A stretch of 64,000 nucleotides of DNA from an uncultured Chloroflexia bacterium (GTDB lineage Bacteria > Chloroflexota > Limnocylindria > Limnocylindrales > CSP1-4). The stretch spans positions 32,001-96,000 of the forward strand of contig CAVVJT010000002.1 of assembly GCA_963748625.1 (NCBI GenBank). Direction: 5' to 3'. A program made the position numbers and the translations under genes. Of this stretch, positions 7,017-51,322 are shown one piece after another; the stretch's first letter is position 1; each line of letters opens with the position of its first letter. The notes under the pieces are model-generated. The model saw nothing but the letters and a program-made list of their open reading frames with translations. It did no database searches and had not been told where the DNA came from.

Positions 7017-7027
7017 CGGGCCGGATC

Positions 7028-8395: not shown

Positions 8396-8760
8396 GCTCC
8401 CGATTCGCTGGTCGCTGGCGGCGTGCGGACCGCCGCTCCGGGTCCTGGCGCCGTCCGGGTCCTGTCTCCGTCCGGGTCCTGTCTCCGTCCGGGTCCTGTC
8501 TCCGTCCGGCTGCGCGCCGGACGGCCACACGGTGCGGCGGCAGCGCTCGATGCGCGGCTGGTGCGCAGGTCGTGCCCTCGGGACCCTGGCGGAGCGCACG
8601 GGCGGAGCACGGGGCGCACATCCCGCGACGTCACCGCTCCGTGTGCGCGCCGGGTGCGCACGGCAGCAGCCGTCGTGGGCGACGCCCGGTGATGCCGCCT
8701 CCGACCAGCGGCACGGGCACGGAGGGGTATCCGCCGGGCATTGGCGGCACGCGACACCAG
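8392..8760. repeat. ~350-bp dispersed repeat (MITE-like or structured RNA), copy 1, containing the 150-bp palindrome
   Basis: Clearly homologous to 57708-58048; starts at CTAG overlapping the hutI stop; internal 17-bp tandem expansion (CCGTCCGGGTCCTGTCT x3). Confidence 0.85.
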
Positions 8761-8786
8761 GCTCCGGCGCGTCTCTTGCGCGTTCC

Positions 8787-8838
8787 AGCCCGCGCCGGCT
8801 CAGCCCGCGCCGGCTCAGCCCGCGCCGGCTCAGCCCGC
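8787..8838. repeat. 15-bp tandem repeat CAGCCCGCGCCGGCT x3+
   Basis: Directly visible in the sequence. Confidence 0.8.
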
Positions 8839-8858
8839 CAGCGCCGGCCTGCTCCGGC

Positions 8859-10374: not shown

Positions 10375-10403
10375 ACCATAGTCCGCGCCTGATTCACCTC
10401 CAA
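10375..10403 (-). promoter_or_regulatory. Sigma70-like promoter of the candidate sRNA
   Basis: TTGGAG-17 nt-TATGGT on the minus strand, 7 nt before the first hairpin. Confidence 0.5.
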
Positions 10404-10491
10404 CCGGGCGAACGGTAAAGAAACGCACACCTTGGAAGCGGAACCTTCACCTTTCGAGGCAGCCCCCGGATCGCGTGGCATCATCCGCGCC

Positions 10492-11874
10492 ATGATCCCC
10501 ACTGCCAGACTGACCCGCCTCGCTGCCGTGCTCGCGGTCGCGCTCGCTGCCACCGCGTGCGGTGCCGCCGTTCCCACCGCATCGGGCACGCCCGTGCCGA
10601 CCATCGAGTCCCCGGGCTCGTCGGCCCCAGCCGCCACCCCGGGTCCCGACCCGACGCCCGTCGGCGGCTCGACCGGGTCCCCCGCGGCCGCGCTGACCTG
10701 TGACGACGACGTCACCGGCAGCCCGGCCGTCTCGGACGACACCGATCCCAACGCGCCCACCTACGCCGAGATCGAAGGGCAGGTCCAGGCGCTCCGCGGC
10801 ATCACGGCCACCACCCCGGTTGCCCGTGGCGTCTTCGACCAGGCCAGCCTGTGTGCGTACCTGCGCACGAGCTTCCGGGAGGACAACCCGGCCGACCTCA
10901 TCGCTGCCACGGAGGCGCTCTACAAGCACCTGCTCCTGATGCCCGAGGACGTGTCGCTCGAACAGCTCTACCTCGACCTGCTCACAAGCCAGGTCGCCGG
11001 GCTCTACGACGATGACGACAAGCACATGTACGTGGTCACCTCGGACGGTGATATCGGACCGGCCGAGGAGATCACCTACGCTCACGAGTTCACCCACGCG
11101 CTCCAGGACCAGCAGTTCGTGCTCAAGCAGCTGATGGGCGAGGACTTCGACCAGAGCGACCGCTCGATGGCGCGTGCCACGCTGGTGGAGGGCGACGCCA
11201 CGCTGCTGATGTCGCTCTGGGCCCAGCAGAACCTGACTGCGGCCGAGCTGGGCGAGGTCGCGTCCACCACCGATCCCGCCTCCCAGGCGGTCCTGGACCG
11301 GATGCCCGCGATCCTCAAGGACCCGCTGCTGTTCCCGTACACGCAGGGCCTGACCCTCGCGCTGACCGCGTTCACGCAGGGCGGCGGCTTCGCGGGGGTT
11401 GACGCGCTGTATGCCAACCCGCCGGCCTCCACCGAGCAGGTGCTGCACCCGGAGAAGTACGAGGCCGCGGAGGCGCCCGTGGACGTGGTGTTCCCGTCCG
11501 ATCTGGCGGCGCGGCTGGGCGACGGCTGGAAGGTGTCGATGGAGGACACGATTGGCGAGCTGCTCCTGGGCATCGTGCTCAAGGAGGGCGGCGCGACCGC
11601 CACCGGCGACGCGGCGGCAGGGTGGGGCGGCGACCGGATCGCGCTCATCGAAGGCCCCGGCGGCGAGGTGGCGGTCGTGATGGACACGGCGTGGGACACC
11701 TCCGCCGATGCCGACGAGTTCGCGGCGGCCCTCGAGCCGATGGCCGCCAAGTTGACGGCTGCCGGGCGATCCGCGTCCGTGCTGCGGCCATCCGAGGGTC
11801 GCGTGGTCCTGGTGTCGGCGACATCGCCTGACGTGATGGGCCGCGTGGCGAACGTGCTGGGCCTCGCCGAGTAG
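10492..11874 (+). CDS. Lipoprotein with zinc metallopeptidase-like domain (Hvo_1808-like)
   Basis: Signal ending ATAC, HEFTHALQDQ (HExxH), EGDA, FPY and STEQVLHPEKY motifs. Confidence 0.85.
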   Translation: MIPTARLTRLAAVLAVALAATACGAAVPTASGTPVPTIESPGSSAPAATPGPDPTPVGGSTGSPAAALTCDDDVTGSPAVSDDTDPNAPTYAEIEGQVQALRGITATTPVARGVFDQASLCAYLRTSFREDNPADLIAATEALYKHLLLMPEDVSLEQLYLDLLTSQVAGLYDDDDKHMYVVTSDGDIGPAEEITYAHEFTHALQDQQFVLKQLMGEDFDQSDRSMARATLVEGDATLLMSLWAQQNLTAAELGEVASTTDPASQAVLDRMPAILKDPLLFPYTQGLTLALTAFTQGGGFAGVDALYANPPASTEQVLHPEKYEAAEAPVDVVFPSDLAARLGDGWKVSMEDTIGELLLGIVLKEGGATATGDAAAGWGGDRIALIEGPGGEVAVVMDTAWDTSADADEFAAALEPMAAKLTAAGRSASVLRPSEGRVVLVSATSPDVMGRVANVLGLAE

Positions 11875-14088: not shown

Positions 14089-17000
14089 ATGTCGGGGAAG
14101 ACTCGTCCCGCGGGGCGGCAGGTGGTGCGGCGTGCCGCGGCCCTGCTGGTGGCCGTCGGGCTCATCACGGGCATCCAGCCCACCCTCGTCGCGCCGGTGC
14201 GCGCGGCGGACTCGCCGGGGGCTCCCGCAGCCCTCGCCGACCCCAACCTCCAGTGGAAGGACGCATCGAACGCCCTCGGTGGCGCGGACGACAACAGCGT
14301 CGCCACCGCCAGCGGCGACAACAAGGACCAGGGCTTCCGGGACTTCAGCTTCGGCATCCCCGCCGGGTCGATCATCAAGGGCATCACCGTCACCGCCAAC
14401 GCATGGGCGCCGGACACCGACTGCCGACTCGGTGTGCGCCTGTCGGGCAACGGCGACGCCAACACCAACTGGACCAGCTGGTCGTACAAGAACCTCTCCA
14501 CGGTGGACAGCAGCATCCTGACCTTCGGGTCTGCGAGCGACACCTGGGGCGCGGTCTGGGATCCCACCCAGACGACCAACGGCAACTTCCGCCTCCAGGT
14601 CCGCAATGACGCCCCCAGCGGCTGCGCCAGCACCCTCATCACCTCGCTCGACTGGGTCAGGGCCAGCGTCGACTACGAGACGATCACCCCTCGAACCAAG
14701 GACAACGACCCGATCAGCAAGACGGTCTGCGACGTCGCCGACTTCAACTTCGTCGTCGACATGTCCGGCTCCATCGGCGAGCAGAGCGGCAATCCGTCCA
14801 ACCTGCCCGATCTCCAGGCCGGCATCAACGGCTTTGTCGTGGCGTTCCAGGGCGCCGGCGGCGACGGCAAGTACAGCCTCACCCGCTTCAACGACAACAG
14901 CGCGAACACGCTGACCAGCGGCTACGTGTCGCCCTCGGACTTCCAGAGCGCCGTGGACGGCCTGTCGAGCCCGAGTGGCTGGACGCCCACCTCCAAGGGC
15001 ATCGACACCGGCAGGACCAACAACAGCGGTGGCCGCTCAGGCGCGCAGAACATCATGTTCGTGCTGACCGACGGCTCGCCCAACCAGCCTCCGGTCAACC
15101 CCGACACCCGCATTCCGGCCGTCTGGCTCGGCGCCGCCAACGCGGCGATCGCCTCCGCTGACGCCGCACGCAGCGGCTACGTCGTGCAGGCCGTGTACCT
15201 CGCCACCGACGGCGACCCCGGCGACACGTCCCTGCCGTTCTCGCCCGCGGGTGACCGCCAGTGGGCCACCAAGGTGATGGACGAGATCGGCGGCGGGAGC
15301 CACCTCAACGCCGACTTCGCGAACTTCGCGCTCGACCTGCTCGACCAGATCGGCTGCAACCCCCCGCAGATCACCATCGCCAAGACCGCGGTCGAGAGCC
15401 CCGTGAATGCGGGCGATCAGATCGCGTTCGACATCAGCGTCACCAACTCCGGCGAGGAGACCGCTGACGCCGTCAAAATCCACGACGTCCTGCCGGGCGA
15501 CGACAGCCTCGCGTGGGAAGTCGACAGCCAGGCCTGCTCCATCGGCAAGCAGGTGGTCGACACCAAGGACCGGTGGGTCCTCGACTGCACGATCGACAAC
15601 CTCAAGGTCGGCAAGGACAACGCCAAGACCGTGAGGGTCAGCACCAAGACCGCGCCCGCGTGCGGCACCTACGACAACACCGCCAGCTTCACCTGGAAGG
15701 ACCAGAAGGGGAGCGCAGACGCGTCCGTCAAGGTCCTCTGTGCCGCCATCTCGATTACCAAGGAGGCTGACAACGCCTCCGTCACCGCGGGCGACCCGAT
15801 CGGCTTCACGATCACCGTCAAGAGCACGGGCGATGCCCCGGCCAAGGGCGTGAAGGTCAGCGACACGCTGCCCGCCGATGCCGGCCTCGACTGGGCCATC
15901 GACGGCGGCGATGACGCGGCCAGCTGCTCCATCGCGTCCGGCACGCTCACGTGCGACTTCGACGCCATGGCACCCGGTGCCTCCAGGAACGTCCACATCT
16001 CGAGCCCCACGACCCGGGCGACGCTTGCCGACAGCCCTGTCGACAACACCGCGAAGGTCACGACCACCAACGACGGCAAGGACACGTCCTCGGACAAGGT
16101 CGACATCCTCGCGGGCAGCATCAAGATCGCGAAGGATCCCGACAAGGACGTGGTGGACGCCGGTGATCCGATCGGCTTCACCATCACGGTCACGAGCACC
16201 GGCCCCGGCACGGCCAGGGGCGCAGTCCTCACCGACACCCTGCCCACCGATGCCGGCACCTCGTGGTCGGTCGACGGCGGGACCGCCGCCGGCACCTGCA
16301 GCATCGACCTCGGTGTCCTCACCTGCAACCTCGGCGACCTGCCGAACGAGGCCGTCCGCACCGTCCACCTAACCAGCGGCACGTCCACGGCGACGGGCGC
16401 CGACTCGCCCGTCCACAACGTGGCGAAGGTCACCACCACCGCCGACGGCGAGGCCCAGGACGACGCCGACGTCGTGGTCCTGGTCGGCTCGCTCGCCTGG
16501 TCCAAGTTCGACGCCCACCAGCACCTGCTCGGCGGCGCCAGCTTCCAGGTCACCGGCCCGTCCGGCTTCGACGAGACCGTCGAGGACAACACGGGCGCCC
16601 CGGGCTACTCCGGCCTTGATGCCGACGAGACCGCGGGCGAGTTCCTCCTTGAGGACCTCATGCTCGGCGAGTACAGGGTCACCGAGACCGTGGCCCCGGC
16701 CGGGTACATGCTCGACGAGACCCCGCAGTCGGCCATCCTGACCCGGGAGCAGCTCGACGCCTCCATCGAGAGCCCGTTCGTCAACACGCTCGGCGAGCTG
16801 AGCTGGACCAAGGACAACGGCAAGGGCACGCCCATCGGCGGCGCCACGTTCTCCGTGGAGCCCGACCCGTTCACCGGCACCGGCACCCTGTCCGTGAAGG
16901 ACAACGACGCCAACGACCAGGACAAGACGGCCGGCGCGTTCCACCTTGAGGACGTCCGCGTGGGCAGCTACACGGTCACCGAGACCGCGGCGCCCGAGGG

Positions 17001-18741
17001 CTACGTGCTCGACGAGGGCTCGTGCTCGATCACCGTGGGTGAGGTCAGCGTCGATGCCAGGCTGTCGTCCGAAGTCCCGGCGTGCGCGTTCCACAACACG
17101 CCCATCCCGCCGGCCATCGCCATCATCAAGACCGCCGGCGGCAGCGCCGGCAGCCAGGCGGCCGACGACACCGCCTACAAGGCCGAGTCGTTCGCCGGCA
17201 ACGTCACCTACAAGTACGTCGTCACCAACACCGGTGAGGTCCGCCTGACCGGCGTCTGGGTCGTCGACGACAACGGCACCCCGGCCAACACCGAGGACGA
17301 CTGGCTCCCGGCCTGCTATGCGGGCGACCTCCTGCTCGTCCAGCCGTTCCAGCTCGCGGCAGGCGCGTCGGTGACGTGCTACGCGACCATGGACATCACC
17401 GAGGACACCACGAACGTCGCGACCGCCTCGGGCACGAGCGTCGGTGAAGGCACCGAGGTCTCTGCCAACGACGATGCCGCGGTCAGGATCGTGGGCCCTG
17501 CTGTGACGATCGTGAAGACGGCCGGTGGCTCGGCTGCCAGCCAGGTCGCGGACGGCGAGACCTACGCGACCGAGAACGGCACGGACAACGTCGTCTACAA
17601 GTACGTGGTCACCAACACCGGCGACACGCCGCTGACCATCACCAGTCTCTCCGACGACAAGCTCGGCTCGATCTCGGTCGAGGACTGCGACACGTGGAGT
17701 CTCCCTGACAAGGGCGACAAGGCCACGTGCACCGTCAGCGCGTCGATCTCGAAGGACACCGAGAACACCGCCAGCGTCAAGGCGACGTCCCCGGCAGGTG
17801 CCGAGGTCCAGGCCACCGACAAGGCGAACGTGATCCTCCGCCACGTCGCCATCGAGAAGGCCAACGACGCGGAAGCGCCGCTCCTCGAGGGTGACAACGT
17901 TCACTACACCCTGACCTTCGACGTCCAGAACGGGCCGATCACCAGCATGACGGTGACCGACACGCTGCCCGCCGAGGTCGTCAACCCGCGCGACTTCAGC
18001 GTCGCCCCCGCGTCCGTCGTGGGCCAGGTCATCACCTGGAACCTCTCGAACGTGGCCGACGGCGCCACCATCACCTACACCGCCACCATCGCCGACGGCA
18101 CCGCCGCCGGGAGCTACACCAACGTGGCCGAGATCACCGACGGCCCGTGCGTCGCCGGCGACTGCGATGACGACTCCACCGTGCGGGTGGTCACCGCCTC
18201 GATCAGCCTGGTCAAGACCGCTGGCAACGCTGCCGACGGGACGACCCTCAGGGTCGACAAGCCGGGCAACGTGATCTTCACGTACGTCGTGAAGAACACC
18301 GGCACCGCAGACCTCGAGAACCTCGAGCTCATCGATGACAACGCCACCCCGGCGAACACCACCGACGACGTCAAGGTCACCTGCCCGAGCACGACGCTCG
18401 CGGCCGGAGCTTCGATGACCTGCACCGCCACCCTGCCGGTGGTCGTCGGGTCCAGGACCAACATCGCCGTGGTCACTGCCAACCCGGAGCTCGACAACGA
18501 GACCGAGGTCAGCGACAGCGATGACGCCGTCGTCCTGGTTCCGGAGCCGGTGAAGCCGACCCCGAAGCCGACGCCGAAGGTCACCCCGCCCCCCACGTCC
18601 ACCATCGACGGCACGGACAACGGCACGACCGGCACCACCGGCCTGCTGCTCGTCTTCGCCGCCCTCGCCGGGCTCATGCTCGCGGTCGGGTACCTCAACC
18701 CGGCCCGCGCCACGGCCCGCAAGCGGAGCCGCAGGGGCTAG
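14089..18741 (+). CDS. Large secreted surface adhesin: vWA + DUF11-like + SpaA/CnaB-like Ig repeats + TPPPT-TM-basic C-terminal signal
   Basis: Signal peptide (…LVAPVRA-ADS); MIDAS motif DMSGS…TDG; repeated I.K.VTNTG..N.A domains; E-box YRVTETVAPAGY; C-terminus VTPPPTST-TM-RKRSRRG. Confidence 0.9.
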   Translation: MSGKTRPAGRQVVRRAAALLVAVGLITGIQPTLVAPVRAADSPGAPAALADPNLQWKDASNALGGADDNSVATASGDNKDQGFRDFSFGIPAGSIIKGITVTANAWAPDTDCRLGVRLSGNGDANTNWTSWSYKNLSTVDSSILTFGSASDTWGAVWDPTQTTNGNFRLQVRNDAPSGCASTLITSLDWVRASVDYETITPRTKDNDPISKTVCDVADFNFVVDMSGSIGEQSGNPSNLPDLQAGINGFVVAFQGAGGDGKYSLTRFNDNSANTLTSGYVSPSDFQSAVDGLSSPSGWTPTSKGIDTGRTNNSGGRSGAQNIMFVLTDGSPNQPPVNPDTRIPAVWLGAANAAIASADAARSGYVVQAVYLATDGDPGDTSLPFSPAGDRQWATKVMDEIGGGSHLNADFANFALDLLDQIGCNPPQITIAKTAVESPVNAGDQIAFDISVTNSGEETADAVKIHDVLPGDDSLAWEVDSQACSIGKQVVDTKDRWVLDCTIDNLKVGKDNAKTVRVSTKTAPACGTYDNTASFTWKDQKGSADASVKVLCAAISITKEADNASVTAGDPIGFTITVKSTGDAPAKGVKVSDTLPADAGLDWAIDGGDDAASCSIASGTLTCDFDAMAPGASRNVHISSPTTRATLADSPVDNTAKVTTTNDGKDTSSDKVDILAGSIKIAKDPDKDVVDAGDPIGFTITVTSTGPGTARGAVLTDTLPTDAGTSWSVDGGTAAGTCSIDLGVLTCNLGDLPNEAVRTVHLTSGTSTATGADSPVHNVAKVTTTADGEAQDDADVVVLVGSLAWSKFDAHQHLLGGASFQVTGPSGFDETVEDNTGAPGYSGLDADETAGEFLLEDLMLGEYRVTETVAPAGYMLDETPQSAILTREQLDASIESPFVNTLGELSWTKDNGKGTPIGGATFSVEPDPFTGTGTLSVKDNDANDQDKTAGAFHLEDVRVGSYTVTETAAPEGYVLDEGSCSITVGEVSVDARLSSEVPACAFHNTPIPPAIAIIKTAGGSAGSQAADDTAYKAESFAGNVTYKYVVTNTGEVRLTGVWVVDDNGTPANTEDDWLPACYAGDLLLVQPFQLAAGASVTCYATMDITEDTTNVATASGTSVGEGTEVSANDDAAVRIVGPAVTIVKTAGGSAASQVADGETYATENGTDNVVYKYVVTNTGDTPLTITSLSDDKLGSISVEDCDTWSLPDKGDKATCTVSASISKDTENTASVKATSPAGAEVQATDKANVILRHVAIEKANDAEAPLLEGDNVHYTLTFDVQNGPITSMTVTDTLPAEVVNPRDFSVAPASVVGQVITWNLSNVADGATITYTATIADGTAAGSYTNVAEITDGPCVAGDCDDDSTVRVVTASISLVKTAGNAADGTTLRVDKPGNVIFTYVVKNTGTADLENLELIDDNATPANTTDDVKVTCPSTTLAAGASMTCTATLPVVVGSRTNIAVVTANPELDNETEVSDSDDAVVLVPEPVKPTPKPTPKVTPPPTSTIDGTDNGTTGTTGLLLVFAALAGLMLAVGYLNPARATARKRSRRG

Positions 18742-18850
18742 CCCCTGACGGCACCGGGGCCGGTCACCGGCCGGCCCCGGGCCACCCGCACCCAACCCTT
18801 GGGGTCCCCGAGACCCGGACGGGACGCACCGGCCTGAGTGCGTCCCGTCT
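17844..18850 (+). repeat. ~1 kb direct repeat, copy A (3' part of adhesin 1 plus terminator)
   Basis: Matches 24354-25360 (offset 6510); the only difference I found is at 18831/25341. Confidence 0.95.
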
Positions 18851-18856
18851 CTTTGT
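18818..18856 (+). terminator. Intrinsic terminator
   Basis: GACGGGACGCAC-loop-GTGCGTCCCGTC followed by TCTTTG. Confidence 0.75.
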
Positions 18857-19196
18857 GTGTCGGGACCCGTACTTCCGTACCAGTCGGGAACGGAGCGCGC
18901 GTCGGCCGTCATGCGCCCGGGACGGTGCCATGGCGCACCGCTATCGTCCCGCTGCCTCCCTCCCGGGCATGCGGTGCAGGCTATTTCCTACGTAAATCGG
19001 ACTATGGAACGCGACATTTGACTAGTACTTTAGGCGCTCTGTAAGGACTACTGTCGGTAGTCCACGGAGGTCCGCCCGCAATGGGCTCCGTTCGGACCGG
19101 CGCCAAACCGGACACTTCAGGCCCCGGTCGCCGGGCAGCACTCATAGGAGTTGGCGGTATCGCCAGTCACCGTCCCACTGGGAGGTCAGGGAAGAA

Positions 19197-22100
19197 ATGT
19201 CTCGGGGAACCATCTTCGGTCTGAGCGCCGGAACCAGGCGGGGATTCGTCCTGCTCTGGTCGGCGCTCCTCATGTGTTCACTGGTCCTGCAGTACGCGGT
19301 TGTCGCTCCCGCGCCAGCCGTCGCCGCCACCGGCCTGCTTGCCGGGACGGTCGCGGGCTTCGAGGTCGACGGCGACCTCACGTCCGGCAACGCCGCCAGC
19401 AATCCGGGCGCCATCCCGTCCGGCCTCATCGCGAGCCTGTCCAACGCCCAGGACTGGCTGGACGGCAACGCGACCGGTGGCCTCGTCGATCCGGCGAACC
19501 CGCCGGAGTCCTTCCTCTTCCGCGACGCGGTCGACAAGGTCCTCGTGGCCGGAGACAGCGCGCCCGACAAGAGCGCCTACGTGGGCGGCAACAAGGAGGA
19601 CGACACCACCAATTGGGGCTACTTCAACGAGTCTGGCCCCAACGACAAGACCGACTACCGCCATGTGATGGCGGGCGTCAAGGTGTCCGGCGGCAACCCG
19701 TACGTCTTCCTGGGCGCCGAGCGGATCGACACCAGTGGCACCATGGTCGTGGACTTCGAGCTCAACCAGAAGCCCTTCAAGGTCTTCCCGGGTGCCCCCG
19801 GCGTTGACAAGCCCGACCGGAGCATCAACGACATCCTGATCTCCCTCGAGTATGCCAATGGCGGCTCGAACCCCGAGGTCACCCTCTACCGCATCACCGC
19901 GGTGCAGGAGTTCAACACCGGGCAGGTGGTGACCTTCGACAAGATCAGCGACGCGAAGACGATCGACGCCGTCCGTTCGGCGACGAACTTCGTGCCCCTG
20001 ACCAACGTTGCCTTCCCGTCGGCGACCTACAACGTGGCGGCGTTCGCCTGGGCTGAGGCGTCGGTCAACATCAGCGCCCTCGACCTCCCAGCGAGCTGCC
20101 TCAACTTCGGCCAGGGCTCCATCCGCAGCCGGACCGGCGGCGCCCCTGATCGCTCGGCGCTCAAGGACGCCAGCCAGCCCTTCCCGCTGTCGGTCAACAC
20201 CTGCGGCAAGATCACCGTCGAGAAGCGCGACAAGATCACGAACGACCTCGTCGCGGGCGCAACCTTCAAGTTCGAGCCGGACCCGACCGTCGGCTCCAAC
20301 AAGGCATCCCTCACCGTCACCGACGGCGGCGCGAATGATCCCGACGGCAAGGCCGACGGCAAGATCGTGTTTGCGGCCTGCGACCCAGACACCTACAAGG
20401 TCACGGAGATCGCGCCGCCGCCCGGCTACTTCCCGCCGGCCGACCTCTTCGACACTAAGACCGTCGTCGCGGGCGGTTCCGCGACCTTCGTGTTCGAGGA
20501 CCCGCTCGCCAGGATCAAGTGGCAGAAGGAAGACGCGTCCGGCAAGCTGATCGCCGGCGCCACCTTCACCATCACGCCCAACCCGCGCACCGGCGACGGC
20601 AGCCTGACCGTCGTGGACAACACCGGCCAGGCCGGCTACGACGGCGCCGACTACGACGAGACGGAAGGCGCGTTCACCGTCCGTCGCGTGAAGATCGGCG
20701 GCCCGTACGTCATCGCCGAGACCACCCCGCCGGACGGCTACATCGGCACCAGCGCGACCTACAGCATCACGATCACGGACAAGCTCGACACAGACGGCTA
20801 CGTGGTCGAGGTCCCGGTCGAGACGTTCGTCAACACCCTTGGCTCGCTGGCCTGGCAGAAGGAGAACGCGACAGGCGGCCTGCTCGTCGGCGCCACCTTC
20901 CACGTCACCGGCCCCTTCGGCTACGACGAGACGGTCGTCGACAACAGCGCACCCGACGCGGACCCGGCCGACGGCAAGTTCCTGCTCGAGGACCTGAAGG
21001 TCGGCGAGTACACGGTCACCGAGACCGCGGCCCCGGCCGGCTACATCCTCGACTCCGGCCCGGCCAAGGCCACCGTGTCGGCCGACAAGCCGAACCAGAC
21101 CATCGCTGCCAAGACGTTCATCAACCACCTTGGCAAGATCACCTGGGTCAAGTACGGCCCGGACGGCAAACTGCTCGGCGGGGCGACGTTCTCCGTCACC
21201 CCGGATCCGTACAGCGGCGCAGCATTCCTGACCGTCAAGGACAACGACGTCCACGACGCCGACCCGGCCGACGGCAAGTTCCAGCTCGACAGCATCAAGA
21301 CCGGCACGTACGAGATCGTCGAGACCGCAGCACCCGCGGGCTACGTCCTGGACACCAAGAAGCTGACGGCCGTCGTCACCCAGACGCTCAAGTCGCCGTA
21401 CACGGTCGATGCGGGCAGCGTGAAGAACACGCTCGGCTCGATCAGCTGGGTCAAGAACGGCCCCGACGGCAAGGAGCTGCTCGGCGGCGCCACCTTCACC
21501 ATCACGCCCAACCCGCAGACCGGGGCCGTTGAGCCGCTCGTGGTCGTCGACAACGGCGCCAACGACGCCGACGACACCCTCGGCGCGTTCAAGGTTACGG
21601 GCGTTCTCGTCGACTCCAAGGATCCCCACTACTCGATCGCCGAGACCGCAGCCCCCGCGGGCTACGTCGGCGACGCGTCCGTCGAGATCGTGAACCCGAC
21701 GACCGCCAGCCCTGTCGTCTCCGTCAAGGCCGGCACCTGGGTCAACACGCTCGGCTCCCTCGCCTGGGTGAAGCATGACGGCGACGGCGCCCTCCTGGGC
21801 GGTGCCACCTTCCGCATCACCGGCCCGTTCGACTACGACGTGACCGTCAAGGACAACACGGGCCTCGACGCCGACCCGGATGACGGCGAGTTCCTGCTCG
21901 TCGGCCTCAAGCTCGGCACCTACGAGGTCACCGAGACCCTGGCGCCCGACGGCTACATCCTCGACGGCGACAAGCAGTCCGCCATGCTCACCGCGACGGC
22001 TGTGGACGGGGCGATCGAGCTTCCGTTCGTCAACACGCTCGGCTCGCTGGCCTGGCTCAAGCAGGACGCGGCCGGGAACCTCCTCGGCGGCGCCACCTTC

Positions 22101-25100
22101 CACGTCACCGGCCCGTTCGGGTACGACGAGATCGTCCTGGACAACGCCGCCCCCGACGCCGACCCGGTCGCCGGTCAGTTCCTCCTCGAGGACCTGAAGC
22201 TCGGCACCTACGAGGTCCAGGAGACCCAGGCGCCCGACGGCTACATCCTCGACGCCGACAAGCAGTCCGCCAGCGTGACCGTCGAGGATCCCTCGGCCGT
22301 TATCGAGGCCCCGTTCGTCAACACCCTCGGCGAGCTGACCTGGACCAAGGACAAGGGCGACGAGAAGAGCACGCCGCTTGGCGGCGCGACCTTCAGCGTC
22401 GAGCCCCAACCCCTACACGGGCATCGGCAGCCTGATGGTTGTCGACGATGGTCCGTTCGACCAGGACGACACGGACGGCACCATCCGCCTGATCAACGTC
22501 CCGGTCGGGACGTACGCCGTGACCGAGACCGCGGCTCCCGAGGGCTACACGCTCGACGAGGGCTCCTGCGAGATCACGGTCGATTCCGAGAATCCCACGG
22601 GCACGCCCGCGTGCTCGTTCAGCAACCCGCCCATCCCGCCGGCGATCTCGATCGTCAAGACGGCCGGCACCTCTGAGGCCGTTCAGGTTGCCGATGGCGG
22701 CACCCTCAAGGTCGAGTCCTTCAAGAAGAACGTCACCTACAAGTACGTCGTCACGAACACCGGCAACGTCGGCCTCGTCAACGTGACCGTGAGCGACGAC
22801 AAGCTCGGTGACATCACATGCCCGCAGACGACGCTGGCCGCGAAGGACGACCAGTCCGATGCCGACGAGATGACCTGCTACGCCACGCCGCTTGATGGCA
22901 TCACCGCCGACACGACCAACATCGCGACGGCGAAGGGCTTCAGCATCGGCGAAGGGACGGAGGTCTCCGATACCGACGATGCAATCGTCGAGATCGTCGG
23001 GCCCGCCATCACCGTCGTGAAGACCGCCGGCGCGTCCGCCGGCAGCCAGGTCGCCGACGACACCGACTATGAGACCGAGGCGTTCCCGTCGAACGTCACG
23101 TACAGCTACCTCGTCACCAACACCGGGACGACCACGCTGGTCACCGTCTCCCTGAGCGACGACAAGCTGGGTAGCATCACGTGCCCGAAGACGGCCCTCG
23201 TGGTCGGCGAGAGCATGACGTGCACCGCGACGACGACCGTGCTCGTCGACACGCCGAACATCGGCACCGCCACGGGCACCTCGGCCGCTGGCGCCACCAA
23301 GACGGCGACCGACCCGGCCATGGTCGTGATCCTCACGCCGTCGATCTCCATCGTGAAGACGGCGGGTGACGCCGCGAACGGCGACCCGTACTACACCGAC
23401 GGTGGCCCCGTCACCTACACCTACGTCGTGACCAACACCGGCGAGGTGGCGCTGTCGGACGTCGTCGTCACCGACGACAAGCTGCCCACTGTCACCTGCC
23501 CGCAGGACACCCTGGCCATCGGCGAGTCGATGACCTGCACCGCGACCGGCACCATCACCGTCGACACGACGAACGTAGGCTCGGTCGAAGGCAAGACGCC
23601 CCACAAGACGGTCACTGACACGGATGACGCCGTCGTTCTTGTCCGCGACGCCTCCATCGAGAAGACCAACGACGCCACGGGCACGAAGGCCCCCGGCGAC
23701 ACCGTGGCCTACACGATCACGCTTGACGTGGTCAACGGCCCGATCCCGGCCCTGACCGTGGTCGACACCCTGCCGGCCAACTTCGGGACACCCAGCGCCA
23801 TCTCCGACGGCGGTGTCTACGACTCCGTCAAGAACGAGATCACCTGGAAGCTGACCAACGTGGCCGACGGCGAGGTCCTGACCTACTCGGTCGAGATCGC
23901 CACGACCACCCAGGGCGGGGACTACGTCAACACCGCCGAGATCACGGAAGGCCCGTGCGCCACGACGTGCGACGACGACTCCACCGTGCCGGTGTGGCGC
24001 GTCGCCATCGAGAAGACCAACGACGCCACGGGCACGAAGGCCCCCGGCGACACTGTGGCCTACACCCTCACCCTCGACGTCCAGAACGGCCCGATCGCGG
24101 CCATGAAGGTGGTCGACACCCTGCCGGCCAACTTCGGGACGCCCAGCGCCATCTCCGACGGCGGTGTCTATGACGCCGCCACCCGGACGATCACCTGGAC
24201 CCTGGCCGACGTGGCCGACGGCGAGACCCTGACCTACTCGGTCGAGATCGCCACGACCACCCAGGGCGGGGACTACGTCAACACCGCCGAGATCACGGAA
24301 GGCCCGTGCGTCGCCGGCGAGTGCGACGACGACTCCACCGTGCCGGTGTGGCGCGTCGCCATCGAGAAGGCCAACGACGCGGAAGCGCCGCTCCTCGAGG
24401 GTGACAACGTTCACTACACCCTGACCTTCGACGTCCAGAACGGGCCGATCACCAGCATGACGGTGACCGACACGCTGCCCGCCGAGGTCGTCAACCCGCG
24501 CGACTTCAGCGTCGCCCCCGCGTCCGTCGTGGGCCAGGTCATCACCTGGAACCTCTCGAACGTGGCCGACGGCGCCACCATCACCTACACCGCCACCATC
24601 GCCGACGGCACCGCCGCCGGGAGCTACACCAACGTGGCCGAGATCACCGACGGCCCGTGCGTCGCCGGCGACTGCGATGACGACTCCACCGTGCGGGTGG
24701 TCACCGCCTCGATCAGCCTGGTCAAGACCGCTGGCAACGCTGCCGACGGGACGACCCTCAGGGTCGACAAGCCGGGCAACGTGATCTTCACGTACGTCGT
24801 GAAGAACACCGGCACCGCAGACCTCGAGAACCTCGAGCTCATCGATGACAACGCCACCCCGGCGAACACCACCGACGACGTCAAGGTCACCTGCCCGAGC
24901 ACGACGCTCGCGGCCGGAGCTTCGATGACCTGCACCGCCACCCTGCCGGTGGTCGTCGGGTCCAGGACCAACATCGCCGTGGTCACTGCCAACCCGGAGC
25001 TCGACAACGAGACCGAGGTCAGCGACAGCGATGACGCCGTCGTCCTGGTTCCGGAGCCGGTGAAGCCGACCCCGAAGCCGACGCCGAAGGTCACCCCGCC

Positions 25101-25251
25101 CCCCACGTCCACCATCGACGGCACGGACAACGGCACGACCGGCACCACCGGCCTGCTGCTCGTCTTCGCCGCCCTCGCCGGGCTCATGCTCGCGGTCGGG
25201 TACCTCAACCCGGCCCGCGCCACGGCCCGCAAGCGGAGCCGCAGGGGCTAG
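19197..25251 (+). CDS. Second large surface adhesin (~2000 aa; SpaA/CnaB-like and DUF11-like repeats; TPPPT signal), split by a +1 frameshift near 22405
   Basis: ORFs 19197-22676 and 22378-25251 join at GAG CCC C AAC CCC TAC, restoring FSVEPNPYTG (paralog FSVEPDPFTG in adhesin 1). Multiple W.K…ET.AP.GY…FVNTLG repeats. Confidence 0.85.
23656..24360 (+). repeat. Intragenic tandem domain duplication (351-bp period)
   Basis: ATCGAGAAGACCAACGACGCCACGGGCACGAAGG occurs at 23656 and 24007. Confidence 0.9.
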
Positions 25252-25360
25252 CCCCTGACGGCACCGGGGCCGGTCACCGGCCGGCCCCGGGCCACCCGCA
25301 CCCAACCCTTGGGGTCCCCGAGACCCGGACGGGACGCACCCGCCTGAGTGCGTCCCGTCT
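24354..25360 (+). repeat. ~1 kb direct repeat, copy B
   Basis: Matches 17844-18850. Confidence 0.95.
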
Positions 25361-25508
25361 GCCTCTCCCTTCAGGTAGCAGCTCGCTGCACCACGACAGC
25401 CTTCGTGGAAGATCGCCGACATCGCACCGCAAGCTCTGGCAATTGCCCCCACTGAGCAGTACCGTCCGAAGCTGCGGATAGGACTTATGGGCTATGGAGG
25501 CCTCCACG

Positions 25509-26194
25509 ATGCGCACTCGCTCCGCCGGCTGGATCGCCGGTTCAATTCTCATCGGCGCGGCGATCCTGGCGCCTGCTGCCGCACTTGCCAACGTGCAGAG
25601 CCAGAACATGCCCATCAGCTGGGACCAGGCGAAGCTCGGGTCCGAGGCCCAGTGCTCCGACCTCGACCTGACCGAGGGCCAGGTGTACTGGCACATCCTG
25701 CAGAACCAGGTGTCCGCCAACATCACCACCGGCAAGCTGACCGCCACGTTCCAGGACGCAGGCGTGGTCGGCCCGGTGGACTCGTACCAGAACTCCGGCG
25801 GTACCCTCCACTGGGGCGTGACCACCGGCAAGGACACGGTTCTCGCTTTGTCCACCGACGTGGAGAGCGATGGGAATCTGGTGGTGAGCCACGTCTGCTG
25901 GACCACGCCGCCGAGCAACCCGCCGAGCAACCCGCCGAGCAACCCGCCGAGCACCCGCCGAGCAACCCGCCGAGCAACCCGCCGAGCAACCCGCCGAGCA
26001 ACCCGCCGAGCGCAAGCCCGTCCAGCTCGGTCGAGGCTGTCACCGGCACACCGAGGATCACGCCGCCCCCGACCGACTCGGTGGGCGGTGGCTCTTCCTC
26101 CGGTGACGGCTGGGGCATCGCGATGATCGCCATCGGCGCGCTCGCAGCCTTCGCCCTCCTCGCCAGCCCTGTCCGCCGGCGCCTCAACCGCTAG
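25509..26194 (+). CDS. Secreted protein: small Cys-bracketed domain + (PPSN)n linker + TPPPTDS-TM-basic tail; frameshift at ~25953
   Basis: GGAGG RBS before ATG 25509; signal peptide AALA. One 12-bp CCGCCGAGCAAC unit lacks an A, which moves the C-terminal signal to another frame. Confidence 0.8.
25908..26011 (+). repeat. 12-bp tandem repeat encoding PPSN
   Basis: About 8 copies of CCGCCGAGCAAC. Confidence 0.9.
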
Positions 26195-26240
26195 CTGACG
26201 GTAGGAACCCCCGCAGCGGGGGTCCAGTCGACGCACATGC

Positions 26241-26274
26241 CAGGACCGGGATCCCCCAGGGGGTCCCGGTCTTC
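26241..26274 (+). terminator. Putative terminator hairpin
   Basis: GGACCGGGATCCCC-CAG-GGGGTCCCGGTCT followed by TCT. Confidence 0.55.
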
Positions 26275-26370
26275 TGGTACTGGGAGGACCCCGGACCGGT
26301 ACGAGTGGTGCGAGGAAGCACCGTGTTCGCCTGCGCGATAGCGGACAGGTACGGTCTGGTGGACTCGGGT

Positions 26371-26386
26371 TAGGACACCAGTACTA
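26371..26386. promoter_or_regulatory. Palindromic putative regulator site TAGGAC-N4-GTACTA
   Basis: Related sites at 13835, 18867, 25479 and 30575. Confidence 0.4.
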
Positions 26387-26496
26387 GACGGCATGAGTAC
26401 CCATCGTCGAGCATCAGGTCACCGCCGTCAGGCAGCGGGACCGGAGGGCAACAGCCGGTAGTACCACCAGGCACCACGCAGCTCGGGGACCACACG

Positions 26497-27341
26497 ATGA
26501 ACCGCTTCGGGACTTCCACGCGCACCGTCAGTCTCATCGTCGGCGCCGCCATGGCGCTGGCGCTCACGCTGCCGGCCCTTGCGAACGACGGCCACCAGAG
26601 TGGCTGGGGCATCGGCTGGGACGATCCTGACTTCCAGGGGTCCGGTACCGAGTGCGAGGGCGCGAACCTCGACAATGGCGAGGTCCTCTGGCACTTCGTG
26701 CAGACCCAGGTCCCCTCGGGCATCGCGAGCGGTGAGCTGACCGCCACGTACCAGGAGGCCGGCACCCTTACCTCCGACTCCTACAAGAAGGCCGGGTCCG
26801 TCCTGCACTGGGCGGTCATCACAGGACGCGACACGCTCCTCACGTTCAGCTCGGACGTCGTGAGCAATGGCCAGCTGAACCTCAGCCACATCTGCGCCGG
26901 TGACGACGAGGAAGCGTCCTCCTCCCCCTCGCAGGAGCCGTCGGACAAGCCCAGCGACAAGCCGTCGGACAAGCCCAGCGACAAGCCGTCGGACAAGCCC
27001 AGCGACAAGCCGTCGACAAGCCCAGCGACAAGCCGTCCGACAAGCCCAGCGACAAGCCCAGCGACAAGCCGTCGGACAAGCCCAGCGACAAGCCGTCGGA
27101 CAAGCCCAGCGACAAGCCGAGCACCTCGCCCGAGAACGAGAGCCAGAGCCCGTCGGTGAAGCCGTCCAGCTCGGTCGCGGCCGTGACCGGCAAGCCGCAG
27201 ATCACCCCGCCCCCGACCGACTCCGTCGGCGGCAGCAACGGCAGCGGCAACAGCACCGGCTGGCTGCTGGCGGTCGTCGGCCTCGCCGCCCTGGTGGTGA
27301 GCCTGGTCATCCGGACCCCGGCCCGTCGCACGAGCCGGTAA
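26497..27341 (+). CDS. Paralog of 25509: Cys-bracketed domain + (PSDK)n linker + TPPPTDS-TM-basic tail; frameshift at ~27015
   Basis: Shares C..L..G.V.WH..Q.QV…G.LTAT.Q.AG…LHW.V.TG.DT…SH.C with 25509; one CCGTCGGACAAG unit lacks a G. Confidence 0.8.
26938..27120 (+). repeat. 12-bp tandem repeat encoding PSDK
   Basis: Alternating CCGTCGGACAAG and CCCAGCGACAAG units. Confidence 0.9.
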
Positions 27342-27385
27342 CACCCGGGCCGCAGCGCGGCCCCTCGAGCACGCGACCTGGTGTC

Positions 27386-27418
27386 AAGGAGCCGGAGCCT
27401 TCGGGCCCCGGCTCCTTC
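27386..27418 (+). terminator. Putative terminator hairpin
   Basis: AAGGAGCCGGAGCC-TTCG-GGCCCCGGCTCCTT. Confidence 0.6.
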
Positions 27419-27717
27419 GCGTTCGGCGCAACTGCACGCGGGGGGCCGCACGCGGGTGGGCCGCATGGCGCGGCCCGGACGGTCCTCGTCCTGCCCCTAC
27501 CCTGCCCATCGGTACCACCCGGGTCCGGTGCCCACGGGCAACGTTCCTCGGCGTCCATGTGCGGTCTGGTCCGGTCGGGTGCGCAGATAGGGCACCAGAC
27601 GTACTGGACGAGTCCCACGCGGTAGCCGATGCTTCCCTTGACCTGCAGGCAACGGGTCACGGCAAGCCCGTGAGGGCGGCCACGAAGGCATACATCGTCA
27701 GCACGTTCGGGGACACT

Positions 27718-28083
27718 GTGAAGCGATCAGTCATCACGTCGACCGCAATCGCGCTCCTCATGGCACTCGGAGCTGCCACGAGCGTGGTCGCCGCCGACCC
27801 CTCCGTCGACCCCTCTGCCAACCCGGTCATCAGCGAGACGCCGGATCCGAGCGGCGAGATCTCCGTCGACCCCACCTTCACGACACCCAAGCCGGTGGCC
27901 ACGCCGATCAGCGAGGTCATGGGTGCGACGGGTCGTCCTCAGCGGACCCCGCCGCCGACTGACACGATCGGCGAGCCCACCCAGGCGCCGGGCACGGGCC
28001 TCCAGGTCCTGCTCCTGCTCGGTGCTGCCGGTTCCACCCTGGTGCTGATCGCCGGACGGTTGCCTGTCGCCCGGCGTCGCTAG
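27718..28083 (+). CDS. Small secreted Pro/Ser/Thr-rich protein with TPPPTDT-TM-RRR tail
   Basis: GTG start, signal peptide KRSVITSTAIALLMALGAATSVVA, C-terminus RTPPPTDTIG…LQVLLLLGAAGSTLVLIAG-RLPVARRR. Confidence 0.75.
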   Translation: MKRSVITSTAIALLMALGAATSVVAADPSVDPSANPVISETPDPSGEISVDPTFTTPKPVATPISEVMGATGRPQRTPPPTDTIGEPTQAPGTGLQVLLLLGAAGSTLVLIAGRLPVARRR

Positions 28084-29031: not shown

Positions 29032-29955
29032 TCAGGGTGAAGGGGACTCCCGGTTTGGGTTGGCCTGGTCGGGCGCGGCGGGGGTCGGACGCGGCTTCGG
29101 CGTGCGCTCCGGCTTCGGCGTGGCCTCGGGCTTGGGCTCCCTGGTGGGCTTGGGCGTGGCCTCGGGCTTGGGCTCCTTGGTGGGCTTCGGCGTGGCCTCG
29201 GGCTCGGGCGTCGGCTTGCCGGCCTGACCCCCGCCTGGCTGCCCGCCGCCCCCGCCTCCGGCGCCGCCCGATCCGCCGCCCGATCCGCCGCCCGCCGACA
29301 CCGTCTCGTCGAGGCGCACGATCAGCGTCTCGCTGTTGGCGATGGCCCGGTCGAGCCCGGCCGCTGCCGACGCCGGTGCATGCGCAAGCACCTCCACCAG
29401 GACGGCCCGGTGCACCCGGATCGCCTCGAGCGCCCGCTCGGCTCCCGGTCCCGTGGCCGATCCCAGCTCCTCGATGGCCTGTCCGTACGCTGCGAGCGAT
29501 GCCTCGAGCGCTCCCTCATCCCCGCGCGTCGACGCATCGACTGCCTCCGCGAGGCGGGTCTGGGCACGGGCGAGCTCCGCCTCCAGGCGTGAAGCTGGAT
29601 CGGAGGGGAGCGCCAGCTCCTCGAGGCCCAGCCGGGCGTCGTAGAGCGGGCCGCCAGCCCGCGAGGCCGCAAGCGTGGTCGAACCCACGAGCAGGCCGGC
29701 CAGCACCGCGGCTGCCAGCGTGCCGCTCAGGCGGCGCATGCTCCAGCCGGCGAACAGCCCTCGACGACGGGGTCCCACCACGGGCGCGCCAGTCCGTTCG
29801 AGGTGGCTCCTCCAGGCCGTGTCCATGATGGCGGCGCGCGCGCGCTTCGACGCGGCCGGGCTGGGATCCAGCCTGACCCGCGCATACCGCGCCAGTGTCC
29901 GTTCGAGCTCGTCCCCCGCGAACTCCTCGTGAACCGCCATCTCGTCCTCGTTCAC
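29032..29955 (-). CDS. Single-TM protein with DUF5667-like domain; putative anti-sigma partner
   Basis: Overlaps the ECF sigma stop; TM segment then AGGPLYDARLGLEE; C-terminal EATPKPT repeats. Confidence 0.65.
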   Translation of the reverse strand: MNEDEMAVHEEFAGDELERTLARYARVRLDPSPAASKRARAAIMDTAWRSHLERTGAPVVGPRRRGLFAGWSMRRLSGTLAAAVLAGLLVGSTTLAASRAGGPLYDARLGLEELALPSDPASRLEAELARAQTRLAEAVDASTRGDEGALEASLAAYGQAIEELGSATGPGAERALEAIRVHRAVLVEVLAHAPASAAAGLDRAIANSETLIVRLDETVSAGGGSGGGSGGAGGGGGGQPGGGQAGKPTPEPEATPKPTKEPKPEATPKPTREPKPEATPKPERTPKPRPTPAAPDQANPNRESPSP

Positions 29956-30551
29956 CGGGACTCCCCCGCAGCCCTCGGCAGCTCATCGGTCGCCGGGTCG
30001 ATACCCAGCTCCCGACGCAGCGCCGCGATGGCCCGGAACTGGAGACCGCGGACGGTCCCTTCCTGCCGGCCCATGGCCTCGGCTGCCTCCCGCGCGGACA
30101 GGCCCGCGAAGAACCGCAGCTCGATGGCCTCGCGCTGCTCCGGGGTCAGCCTTCGCAGCGCCCTGGCGACGCTCGCCATCTCCTGGCGGATCGCCGCCAG
30201 CTCGTCGGGCCCGTCCTCGTCGGTCGCCTGTTCGGCGATGATGTCGAGGTTCGAGTGTTCGCGACGGGTCCGAACATGGTCGATGACAACATTCCTGGCC
30301 AGCCGGAAGAGCCAGCCCCCGAAGGGGACGCCCCGCGCCTCGTAGCGCGGCAGCGCCTCCAGGGCCTTGACGAAGACGAGCTGCGCCAGGTCCTCCGCGT
30401 CGCTCGGGCGGCCGACGCGGGCGGCGATGAAGCGGTAGACCGGAGCGTGGTAGTGGTCGAACAGCGCCCCGAAGGCATCGGGGTCCCCGTGCTGCGCCCG
30501 TTCCACGAGGCGGTTGACCGCGTCGTCGTCGATCGTCATAACGACCTGCAC
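29952..30551 (-). CDS. ECF sigma-70 factor
   Basis: AEDLAQLVF, WLFRLARN, LTPEQREAIELRF and GTVRGLQFRA motifs. Confidence 0.93.
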   Translation of the reverse strand: MQVVMTIDDDAVNRLVERAQHGDPDAFGALFDHYHAPVYRFIAARVGRPSDAEDLAQLVFVKALEALPRYEARGVPFGGWLFRLARNVVIDHVRTRREHSNLDIIAEQATDEDGPDELAAIRQEMASVARALRRLTPEQREAIELRFFAGLSAREAAEAMGRQEGTVRGLQFRAIAALRRELGIDPATDELPRAAGESR

Positions 30552-30573
30552 GCCCCCGTGTTAGGTCTCGCGC

Positions 30574-48375: not shown

Positions 48376-48432
48376 CGCCTGCCTGCCCGCCGGGGTGGCG
48401 GGGCGGGTGCTGCACGCGTATGCTCGGGCCCA

Positions 48433-49104: not shown

Positions 49105-49174
49105 CGCCGCGACCGGCAGCCTGGCCCAGGCCGGTTCGGGCCGCCTCGGGCGCCCTCCTGCTACGCTCGGCCCA

Positions 49175-49633
49175 ATGAGCAGCCGCCAGCCGCGCGACCA
49201 GCGCTCCGGGGTGCCACGCCGGGCATCCGCGGGCGGCCGCGGGGCGTACGACCCCGCCACCCCCGACCCGGCCCGAGCGCCGGCGCCGTCGCGCAAGGGT
49301 GGTCCCCACATCGGCCCGCTCGCGATCACGCCGCTCCGCGTCACGCTCATGGTCGCGCTCGTGGGCGGTCTCGCGTTCCTTGCCTACTCGCTGCTGATCC
49401 GGGACGCCCTCCAGGTGCCCCTGATGGCGACCGGCTTCGCGGTCTGCGGGATCGTCATGGCGCTCATGGCGCTGCTCGCCCTGGTGGCGGTGATCCGTGC
49501 CGGTCGCGAAGGCCGCGATGGCACCGCCGTCCTGGCGGCGCTCGGCGGGGGGATCCTCGCGGTCGGGGCGATGATGTGCCTCGCCGCGGCGACGATCTTC
49601 GCCATGATCTGGAGCGGCACGAAGGCCGGCTGA
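49175..49633 (+). CDS. Small 3-TM membrane protein
   Basis: Three hydrophobic helices; TACGCT -10 seven nt before the ATG. Confidence 0.7.
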   Translation: MSSRQPRDQRSGVPRRASAGGRGAYDPATPDPARAPAPSRKGGPHIGPLAITPLRVTLMVALVGGLAFLAYSLLIRDALQVPLMATGFAVCGIVMALMALLALVAVIRAGREGRDGTAVLAALGGGILAVGAMMCLAAATIFAMIWSGTKAG

Positions 49634-51290: not shown

Positions 51291-51322
51291 CCCACGCCGA
51301 CCGGCTCCAGCCGGAGTCCCGC

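Follow-up and report, generated by a model that had tools for sequence, protein, structure and literature searches.

A shared C-terminal tail of unrelated surface proteins as a candidate sorting and anchoring domain of the Limnocylindria

Introduction

The C-terminal signals LPXTG, PEP-CTERM, PGF-CTERM, GlyGly-CTERM and MYXO-CTERM have each led to a dedicated enzyme and to the surface proteome of a lineage. The LPXTG signal of sortase, the PEP-CTERM signal of exosortase and the PGF-CTERM signal of archaeosortase A share a tripartite build of signature, hydrophobic helix and basic end, and in PEP-CTERM and PGF-CTERM proteins the signature abuts the helix. Here we compare with these systems a tail of about 60 residues that is encoded at the 3' ends of five surface-protein genes in a 64,000-nucleotide stretch of DNA (the window; positions 32,001 to 96,000 of contig CAVVJT010000002.1, assembly GCA_963748625.1) from an uncultured Chloroflexia bacterium of the class Limnocylindria (Chloroflexota). 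To our knowledge, Limnocylindria are common in soil as well as in lakes and other freshwater, and we know of no well-studied cultured member and of no description of their cell envelope.

Section 5 of Haft 2023 (bioRxiv 10.1101/2023.06.07.544157) sets out eight attributes of tripartite C-terminal sorting signals, and the same preprint describes four Cys-containing signals, each of one lineage and with an enzyme that was then unknown. As far as that text goes, an enzyme that is encoded elsewhere and serves many substrates is the usual case for such signals.

Results

The five genes lie in a row on the + strand of the window, between positions 14089 and 28083, and each encodes an N-terminal signal peptide and the same C-terminal tail. 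Two of the products are large adhesins (adhesins 1 and 2) and three are small surface proteins (3, 4 and 5). The tail domain is encoded on the + strand at 18559-18738 in adhesin 1 (core TPPPTS at 18583-18600; 56.1 bits), at 25069-25248 in adhesin 2 (core at 25093-25110; 56.9 bits), whose tail does not differ from that of adhesin 1, at 26012-26191 in small protein 3 (core TPPPTD at 26060-26077; 83.1 bits), at 27159-27338 in small protein 4 (core TPPPTD at 27204-27221; 81.3 bits) and at 27901-28080 in small protein 5 (core TPPPTD at 27946-27963; 71.4 bits). In all five genes T-P-P-P-T-[S/D] leads, across a spacer of about 12 residues, into a hydrophobic helix, after which come a proline and an arginine cluster. 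A first-pass annotation of the window, made from its letters, had placed the motif at these same five sites, and its basic ends RKRSRRG, VRRRLNR, RRTSR and VARRR do follow spacer and helix; in all three small genes it had also rightly read an extension of the motif on its upstream side, V-x-[AG]-[VA]-T-G-x-P-x-x. The signal peptides that it assigned are seen at all five starts, with signal-peptide-like N-termini encoded at 14089, 19197, 25494, 26497 and, from a GTG codon, 27718.

When a profile hidden Markov model (HMM) of 18 tails was run on 764 six-frame open reading frame (ORF) pieces of the window, only the five tails exceeded 25 bits (56-83 bits), scores that arise partly by construction, as four window tails sat in the seed alignment. 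The maximum among 20 dinucleotide shuffles was 15.6 bits. The other eight PPPT matches in the six frames of the 64 kb carry no such tail and are judged to lie in non-coding frames by their arginine-rich, stop-interrupted translations.

Beyond the window the tail is widespread. A profile of the four distinct window tails gave 35 matches with E ≤ 0.01 among 8,000 scored candidates from longer proteins, and all 35 have the same build. Run against 1.84 billion representatives of clusters defined at 50% identity, the 18-tail profile matched 626 of these protein clusters at E ≤ 0.001 and, at the stricter E ≤ 1e-10, 112; confinement to this locus, which the first-pass annotation had named as refuting it, is thus not what is seen. 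Among 185 fetched proteins, 180 scored above 25 bits on the local tail HMM; in 177 of them the match ends no more than 15 residues before the C-terminus, and in 170 no more than five, and the remaining three look like read-throughs. The cargo is mostly unrelated, with 9,206 of 10,011 pairs of N-terminal parts lacking BLASTP similarity outside the tail (E < 1e-5 over at least 40 residues). The commonest Pfam family among 130 scanned tail proteins, DUF7507, occurs in 18, and most have no family at all. By a crude rule, a signal peptide is present in 101 of 143 relatives, and many of the 42 without one begin within a domain, as truncated gene calls would. The shared C-terminal tripartite domain that the first-pass annotation described is therefore borne out well outside the locus.

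Genomic copies come almost only from metagenome-assembled genomes of Limnocylindria. When one genome per species was scanned at the DNA level for TGTPx[IV]TPPP, a motif derived from an 11-tail alignment, 152 matches were returned, 23 of which were confirmed, giving 22 loci in 17 genome bins. Because only this single variant was scanned, the taxonomic range and the copies per genome are lower bounds. The 22 loci hold 30 tails, up to four per locus and all on the strand of the query match, and the tail-bearing loci represent at least six different genomic neighbourhoods; tails lie on two contigs in five of the 17 bins, and the window holds five copies. Sixteen loci are labelled as uncultured Chloroflexia, four as Candidatus Limnocylindrales (class Limnocylindria, Chloroflexota), one as Verrucomicrobiia (L004) and one as Methylomirabilota (L021). 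The last two contigs, with a G+C content of 0.68-0.71, may be mis-binned or mislabelled, because their flanks share synteny with the window, either at arginyl-tRNA synthetase or at aminotransferase-ADH-FAA hydrolase-DUF3105. The G+C content of the window is about 71%, and that of the tail-bearing loci fits the 68.9% given for Limnocylindria in the available text of PMC10608941.

Within the tail, an upstream block G-x-V-[E/L]-[A/G]-x-T-G-x-P-x-[I/V] precedes a core T-x1-P-x2-T-x3 with the consensus T-[P/L]-P-[P/S/A]-T-[D/S]. Aligned independently with MAFFT, 130 whole proteins show no variation at the T, P and T of the core and at least 90% conservation of the T and P of the upstream block. The x1/x2 pairs among 176 distinct tails are PP (100), LP (25), PS (24), PA (17), MP (3), PQ (2) and VP (1); in the four remaining tails the script had anchored on a second, downstream T-x-P-x-T, and their cores read by eye as TPPPTD or TLPPTD. 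After this correction the residue following the second Thr, x3, is Asp in 139 tails, Ser in 33, Asn in two, Ala in two and Gly in none. The raw count had given four cores lacking Pro at both variable positions, against 8.8 expected (Fisher p = 0.048), and all four are the mis-anchored ones. Because these exceptions disappear, every core keeps at least two adjacent prolines (176/176), and a Pro-Pro constraint on the core is suggestive only.

Downstream of the core, a variable spacer separates it from an uncharged run (median distance 14 residues, 176 tails); the usual last residues of this spacer are G/S/T-W and then R or Q, or else G-L or G-F-G. Counted over the 20 commonest helix-start triplets in these tails, G/S/T-W accounts for 90, G-L for 44 and G-F-G for eight; R or Q comes next in 68 of the 90, and the others read GWL, GWG, GWS or SWA. 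The uncharged run has a median length of 17 residues (range 14-32), and the tail helices of the related loci reach Kyte-Doolittle maxima of 2.2-3.4. In most tails P-[A/S/T] follows the helix and leads into the basic cluster, and an Arg-rich end is visible in every listed tail, by eye rather than by separate count.

Two further motifs were tried and rejected. A hidden LPxTG in the spacer is not general, as [LIVMA]-P-x-[TS]-G follows the core in 16 of 176 tails and strict LPxTG in one. These 16 matches are mostly L-P-x-S-G of one subfamily (L003, L017 and L019; P0041, P0062, P0076, P0086, P0087, P0095, P0102 and others), in which T-L-P-x-[S/T]-G-T-P-G-G-D-[S/T]-W-R directly follows T-P-P-P-T-[D/S]; the LPxSG/LPxTG-like element lies about eight residues from the helix and may be a relic of a sortase-type site, or a second one. 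An upstream LAxTG was rejected as a cleavage motif: [E/L/G]-[A/G]-x-T-G occurs in 124 of 176 tails and LAxTG itself in eight, and the window adhesins lack the block.

Homologues of the window proteins bear other tails in place of this one. The 118 homologues of the adhesin body comprise 47 with this tail, plus four at 20-23 bits, eight with LPxTG, 22 with PT-AFTG, one with LAxTG, six with [VL]PNTA, seven with another helix and basic end, and 23 with none, many of them apparently truncated. Seven of the 12 homologues of the small-protein domain carry this tail, one carries another helix and four (P0188, P0189, P0191 and P0192) end in GGPPPE[IV]PEAP, a helix and RR; two of these, P0189 and P0192, reach 13.3 and 11.8 bits on PEP_CTERM (TIGR02595, cut-off 16), and the sequence may be another unmodelled signal variant. 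In the [VL]PNTA tails (P0282, P0284, P0293, P0295, P0296 and P0297), 15 spacer residues separate S-[VL]-P-N-T-A from a helix that leads into an Arg cluster, and no NCBIfam anchor model matches them; P0293 bears the NCBI name Candidatus Limnocylindria. Since homologues elsewhere carry LPxTG, LAxTG-like or PEP-like tails, the tail occupies the place of recognised sorting signals of other lineages, and of the eight attributes discussed below this exchange of tails is the most telling.

No existing model in Pfam or in NCBIfam release 20 covers the tail, another possibility raised in the first-pass annotation; of the outcomes that this annotation had listed against its own reading, none of those that the sequences could show was seen. 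The four distinct window tails, as 60-residue pieces, gave only noise against NCBIfam at E ≤ 10 (GVDTG_CTERM, 10.4 bits; cut-off 29), none of its anchor models reached the cut-off on 140 relatives, and the 2025 copy of Pfam matched nothing on the window tails or on those of the relatives. As a positive control, the LPRTG/TAFTG tails of four homologues, of similar length, scored 20.4-25.6 bits on TIGR01167 (cut-off 15.9). We found no published work on the tail motif, nor any on Limnocylindria together with sortase. Literature on sortases in Chloroflexi likewise yielded no mention of the motif, and the name Limnocylindria is absent from the 15 best-ranked of 1,569 papers that use the vocabulary of these sorting systems. 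The sole paper found to contain TPPPTD, to judge from the part of its text available, concerns an insect Dbf4 orthologue.

The tail shows all eight attributes listed in section 5 of Haft 2023. It is C-terminal (177/180) and present in multiple copies per genome (five in the window, a lower bound), it has a conserved signature (T, P and T invariant in 130 proteins), a hydrophobic middle of helix length and a basic Arg end, and most of its bearers have a signal peptide (all five window genes, 101 of 143 relatives). Most pairs share only the signal (9,206 of 10,011), and homologues without it, or with another signal, occur for both the adhesins and the small proteins.

Like the PEP-CTERM and PGF-CTERM signals, the tail is tripartite, occurs on many substrates per genome, presumably depends on an enzyme encoded elsewhere and follows a Thr/Pro-rich linker; a minority of tails have P-G-F at the helix start, and a PEP-like tail is found on small-protein homologues. 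It differs from both in that its strongest signature stands about 14 residues upstream of the helix. PEP-CTERM (TIGR02595) has no match on the window tails or their relatives, and neither has PGF-CTERM; G-F-G starts the helix in only eight of 176 tails, and scores on models of ArtA-dependent glycoproteins are about 15 bits against a cut-off of 400. The four Cys-containing signals of Haft 2023 were found in the same way, and they resemble the tail in their eight attributes, their restriction to one lineage and an enzyme unknown at the time; as described there, they have an invariant Cys and span 20-34 residues, whereas the tail has about 60 residues and no Cys (0 in 18 aligned tails; MYXO-CTERM 8.1 bits, cut-off 20). 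The [VL]PNTA tails share an x-P-x-T-x signature, a long spacer, a helix, an Arg end and the same adhesin body, but differ in the P-N-T-A signature, a different helix and the lack of a T-G-x-P block.

Adhesin 1 (14089-18741, + strand; 1550 residues) consists, by translation and Pfam, of a signal peptide, VWA, DUF11, DUF7507 and SpaA (prealbumin-fold) domains and the tail, and includes a TIGR04226 isopeptide-forming domain (34.4 bits, cut-off 30). Adhesin 2 (19197-25251, + strand; about 2018 codons) encodes, by Pfam and comparison with relatives, a signal peptide, at least seven SpaA repeats, DUF7507, DUF11 and the tail; its unbroken relatives P0035, P0193 and P0195, which match in N-terminus or body, have 1793-2052 residues. 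Small protein 3 (25494-26194, + strand) and its paralogue, small protein 4 (26497-27341, + strand), each consist of a signal peptide, a domain of about 110 residues, a repeat and the tail. The domain (25494-25900 and 26497-26900; P0183-P0192) has conserved W-H-F-V and N-L-S-H-I-C motifs, belongs to no Pfam or NCBIfam family and has only 12 relatives found. It is linked to the tail by tandem repeats of 12 nucleotides, which encode (PSNP)n at 25905-26010 and (PSDK)n at 26896-27143. Relatives of these proteins have 220-326 residues and different linker repeat units (APTAKPSQ, TEAPTTAP), so that linker length seems to evolve fast. Small protein 5 (27718-28083, + strand; 121 residues, GTG start) has a signal peptide, a short Pro-rich stretch and the tail; its relatives P0009-P0019 have 117-147 residues.

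Three of the five tail genes are broken by changes of one nucleotide in short homopolymer runs, namely adhesin 2 at the C4 run 22404-22407, small gene 3 at an irregular PSNP repeat unit near 25953 and small gene 4 at an irregular PSDK unit near 27015. The order and common strand of the five consecutive genes stand as the first-pass annotation had them, but it had passed over these breaks. Further genes of the window are apparently split into overlapping or consecutive ORFs (7017-8858, 48376-49633, 51290-53103 and 57632-58948), and related loci from long-contig metagenome bins are similarly fragmented. Because other genes look fragmented too, the three frameshifts are probably errors of an error-prone long-read assembly; possibly they are real variation, arising by slippage in the 12-nucleotide repeats.

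The 3' ends of both adhesin genes carry an exact direct repeat of 987 nucleotides (17844-18830 and 24354-25340, both on the + strand), whose copies lie 6,510 nucleotides apart; each takes in the last body domains together with the tail and extends beyond the stop codon by some 90 nucleotides. Recent gene conversion, duplication or assembly collapse could be its origin. As the adhesins share this identical cassette, the window holds four independent versions of the tail, in agreement with the count of the first-pass annotation. At the DNA level the tails of small genes 3 and 4 share 86% identity over 71 nucleotides, and the tail of gene 5 shares 62% with that of gene 3.

All-against-all BLAST of the gene calls of the loci and the window revealed only one family common to three synteny groups, an extracytoplasmic function (ECF) sigma factor, which lies within a few kilobases of the tail genes in L001, L002, L008-L013, L015-L018 and L022. 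In the window, 29035-29982 and 29955-30560, both on the - strand, encode an ECF sigma factor with a Pro-rich partner that resembles an anti-sigma factor. The sigma factor is a possible regulator of the tail-bearing surface proteins rather than an enzyme. The window also has genes for a PASTA kinase and a Mur ligase, which indicates a peptidoglycan wall. Upstream of the five genes, a 493-residue ORF at 10393-11871 (+ strand), which Pfam assigns to no family, scores 128 bits on the model for archaeal surface proteins of the Hvo_1808 family, where the cut-off is 200; its syntenic copies in L001 and L002 adjoin the arginyl-tRNA synthetase gene.

Discussion

We propose that the tail is, on balance probably, a C-terminal sorting and anchoring domain of about 60 residues that is specific to the class Limnocylindria, and a novel sorting signal is supported by every criterion that could be applied to the sequences. 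We infer its topology, its recognition, cleavage and attachment, and the class of its enzyme as follows. The N-terminal signal peptide would direct export through the Sec pathway, and the C-terminal helix and Arg cluster would stop transfer and leave the Arg end in the cytoplasm. The signature T-[P/L]-P-[P/S/A]-T-[D/S] would thereby stand about 14 residues outside the membrane, where a dedicated enzyme, encoded elsewhere and acting on many substrates, would recognise it and remove the helix, leaving the mature protein joined to the wall or to a lipid.

For the enzyme we favour, rather than regard as settled, a sortase-like transpeptidase that cuts after the second Thr. Like LPXTG proteins, those described here have a tripartite C-terminus in which a Pro and, two residues on, a Thr are fixed and the first and middle residues vary: LPXTG positions 2 and 4 are invariant in the core of the 130 aligned proteins, and position 1 is P, L, M or V. 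The cargo is of the same kinds (SpaA, isopeptide domains, DUF11 and VWA), and in homologues of adhesin 1 LPRTG, LPSTG or LPNTG stands about as far from the last body domain as the core does here. By analogy, this LPXTG-like variation of the core and the SpaA, TIGR04226 and VWA cargo, as in Gram-positive sortase substrates, point to a sortase-like enzyme, as do the wall-related PASTA kinase and Mur ligase genes of the window, and a variant of LPXTG cut by a transpeptidase, as the first-pass annotation had it, is a reasonable guess. The 15-residue spacer of the [VL]PNTA tails may be a hint of a Limnocylindria enzyme whose active site lies further from the membrane.

Several observations weigh against this proposal, some of them against its sortase part in particular. 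After the Thr the tail has Asp or Ser, and Gly in none of 176; its spacer has a median of 14 residues, compared with 3-9 for the LPxTG and 5 for the AFTG of homologues; and TIGR01167 gives no match at E ≤ 10 on the four window tails and none at E ≤ 0.01 in the 140 relatives. What the small-protein homologues bear is, moreover, a PEP-CTERM-like tail and no LPXTG. MAFFT also aligns the '[IV]TPP' of the tail with an 'ITPP' linker ahead of the LPRTG of homologues, a reading by which TPPPT would derive from the linker. The domain is longer than classical signals and, unlike LPXTG, has further conserved blocks upstream and around the helix, namely T-G-x-P, G-[W/L/F] at the helix start and a Pro after the helix, and a permanent membrane stalk could explain these extra parts as well. 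In addition, Pfam scans of the 64-kb window and about 420 kb of related sequence (22 loci) at cut-offs of 1e-3 to 1e-8 found no sortase, exosortase, rhomboid or CPBP/Rce1-like family. They covered 49 ORFs of the window and, in the loci, 271 of the 277 gene calls and another 129 ORFs; weak matches may be hidden by these cut-offs. The six other gene calls, of L012, repeat the L011 region, and the other 107 of the 236 uncalled ORFs are shorter than about 150 residues; the gene caller, which works from GC content, overlooks genes rich in Thr and Pro and breaks up those with frameshifts. For the window itself, the first-pass annotation had already seen no sortase.

The main rival, which we consider possible but rather unlikely, is a permanent membrane anchor: the helix would be kept, the proteins would be type I membrane proteins, and T-x-P-x-T-[D/S] with T-G-x-P would form a rigid Pro-rich stalk, or a site of O-glycosylation or wall docking. 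In high-GC Gram-positives, stretches rich in Thr and Pro typically serve as sites of O-glycosylation. Most tails have G-[W/L/F] ahead of the helix and P-[A/S/T] behind it, and this conservation on both sides agrees with a retained helix, as do the 14 residues or so between motif and helix, the adjacent prolines of all 176 cores and the lack of a processing enzyme in the vicinity of the 23 regions that were scanned. An exact T-x-P-x-T-[D/S], held at a constant spacing from the helix across 626 clusters with unrelated cargo, is, however, not what one expects of a stalk or of a loose site of glycosylation. Moreover, the same cargo bears bona fide cleavable signals in other lineages, where LPRTG tails reach the cut-off of TIGR01167, and the published attributes of cleaved sorting signals, in the form in which they are listed, are all eight found in the tail.

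If the tail is cleaved, a membrane-embedded enzyme (exosortase/archaeosortase-like, rhomboid or CPBP-type) could cut at G-[W/L/F] instead, with T-x-P-x-T-[D/S] as an upstream element for recognition or modification. The prominence of G/S/T-W, G-L and G-F-G among the helix starts suits such a cut, some tails contain SNPGFGLMLALL, which resembles PGF-CTERM and goes with the sub-threshold matches to ArtA-dependent S-layer glycoproteins, and the P-E-x-P-E-A-P tail of small-protein homologues comes near the PEP_CTERM cut-off; the conserved Pro after the helix suits a reading of the helix as a whole. Yet the helix-start residue is far less constant than T-x-P-x-T, PEP-CTERM, PGF-CTERM, GlyGly-CTERM and MYXO-CTERM all stay below cut-off on the four window tails and the 140 relatives, and the flanks of the window and of the related loci encode no such enzyme, which leaves this alternative improbable. 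A tail that has no function of its own, spread among paralogues as a cassette by duplication and recombination and conserved in appearance because its copies are recent, is very improbable indeed. The exact 987-nucleotide cassette of the adhesins and the paralogy of small genes 3 and 4, with their similar tail DNA, are what such spread would leave, but the divergence of the tails, their cluster count and their neighbourhoods already contradict it: the invariant residues persist in tails whose identity to the first window tail is as low as 27-45%, the 626 clusters at 50% identity and at least six genomic neighbourhoods are not those of a recent local cassette, and gene 5 shares just 62% of its tail DNA with gene 3.

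Returning to a cleaved sorting and anchoring domain, we tentatively suggest that Limnocylindria have a sorting system of their own, although we would not rate this further step as likely. Its enzyme would come either from a subclass of sortases with cleavage at T|D, and perhaps also at P-N-T|A, about 15 residues above the membrane, or from a family new to protein sorting, and each cell would use it to fix dozens of adhesins and small Pro-rich proteins to the envelope. Were the enzyme a sortase specific for T|D, it would widen the known range of substrates in a family that is much used in protein engineering; if the enzyme is not a sortase, a new sorting enzyme is to be found. The tail HMM offers a precise query for that enzyme by phylogenetic profiling, and a curated model of the tail would replace 'hypothetical protein' on many small proteins of these genome bins. 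The tail also marks surface proteins of Limnocylindria at once, in at least 626 clusters, and if these organisms do have their own sorting system, its 60 residues would be the recognition domain of that system in a widespread uncultured class of soil and freshwater bacteria.

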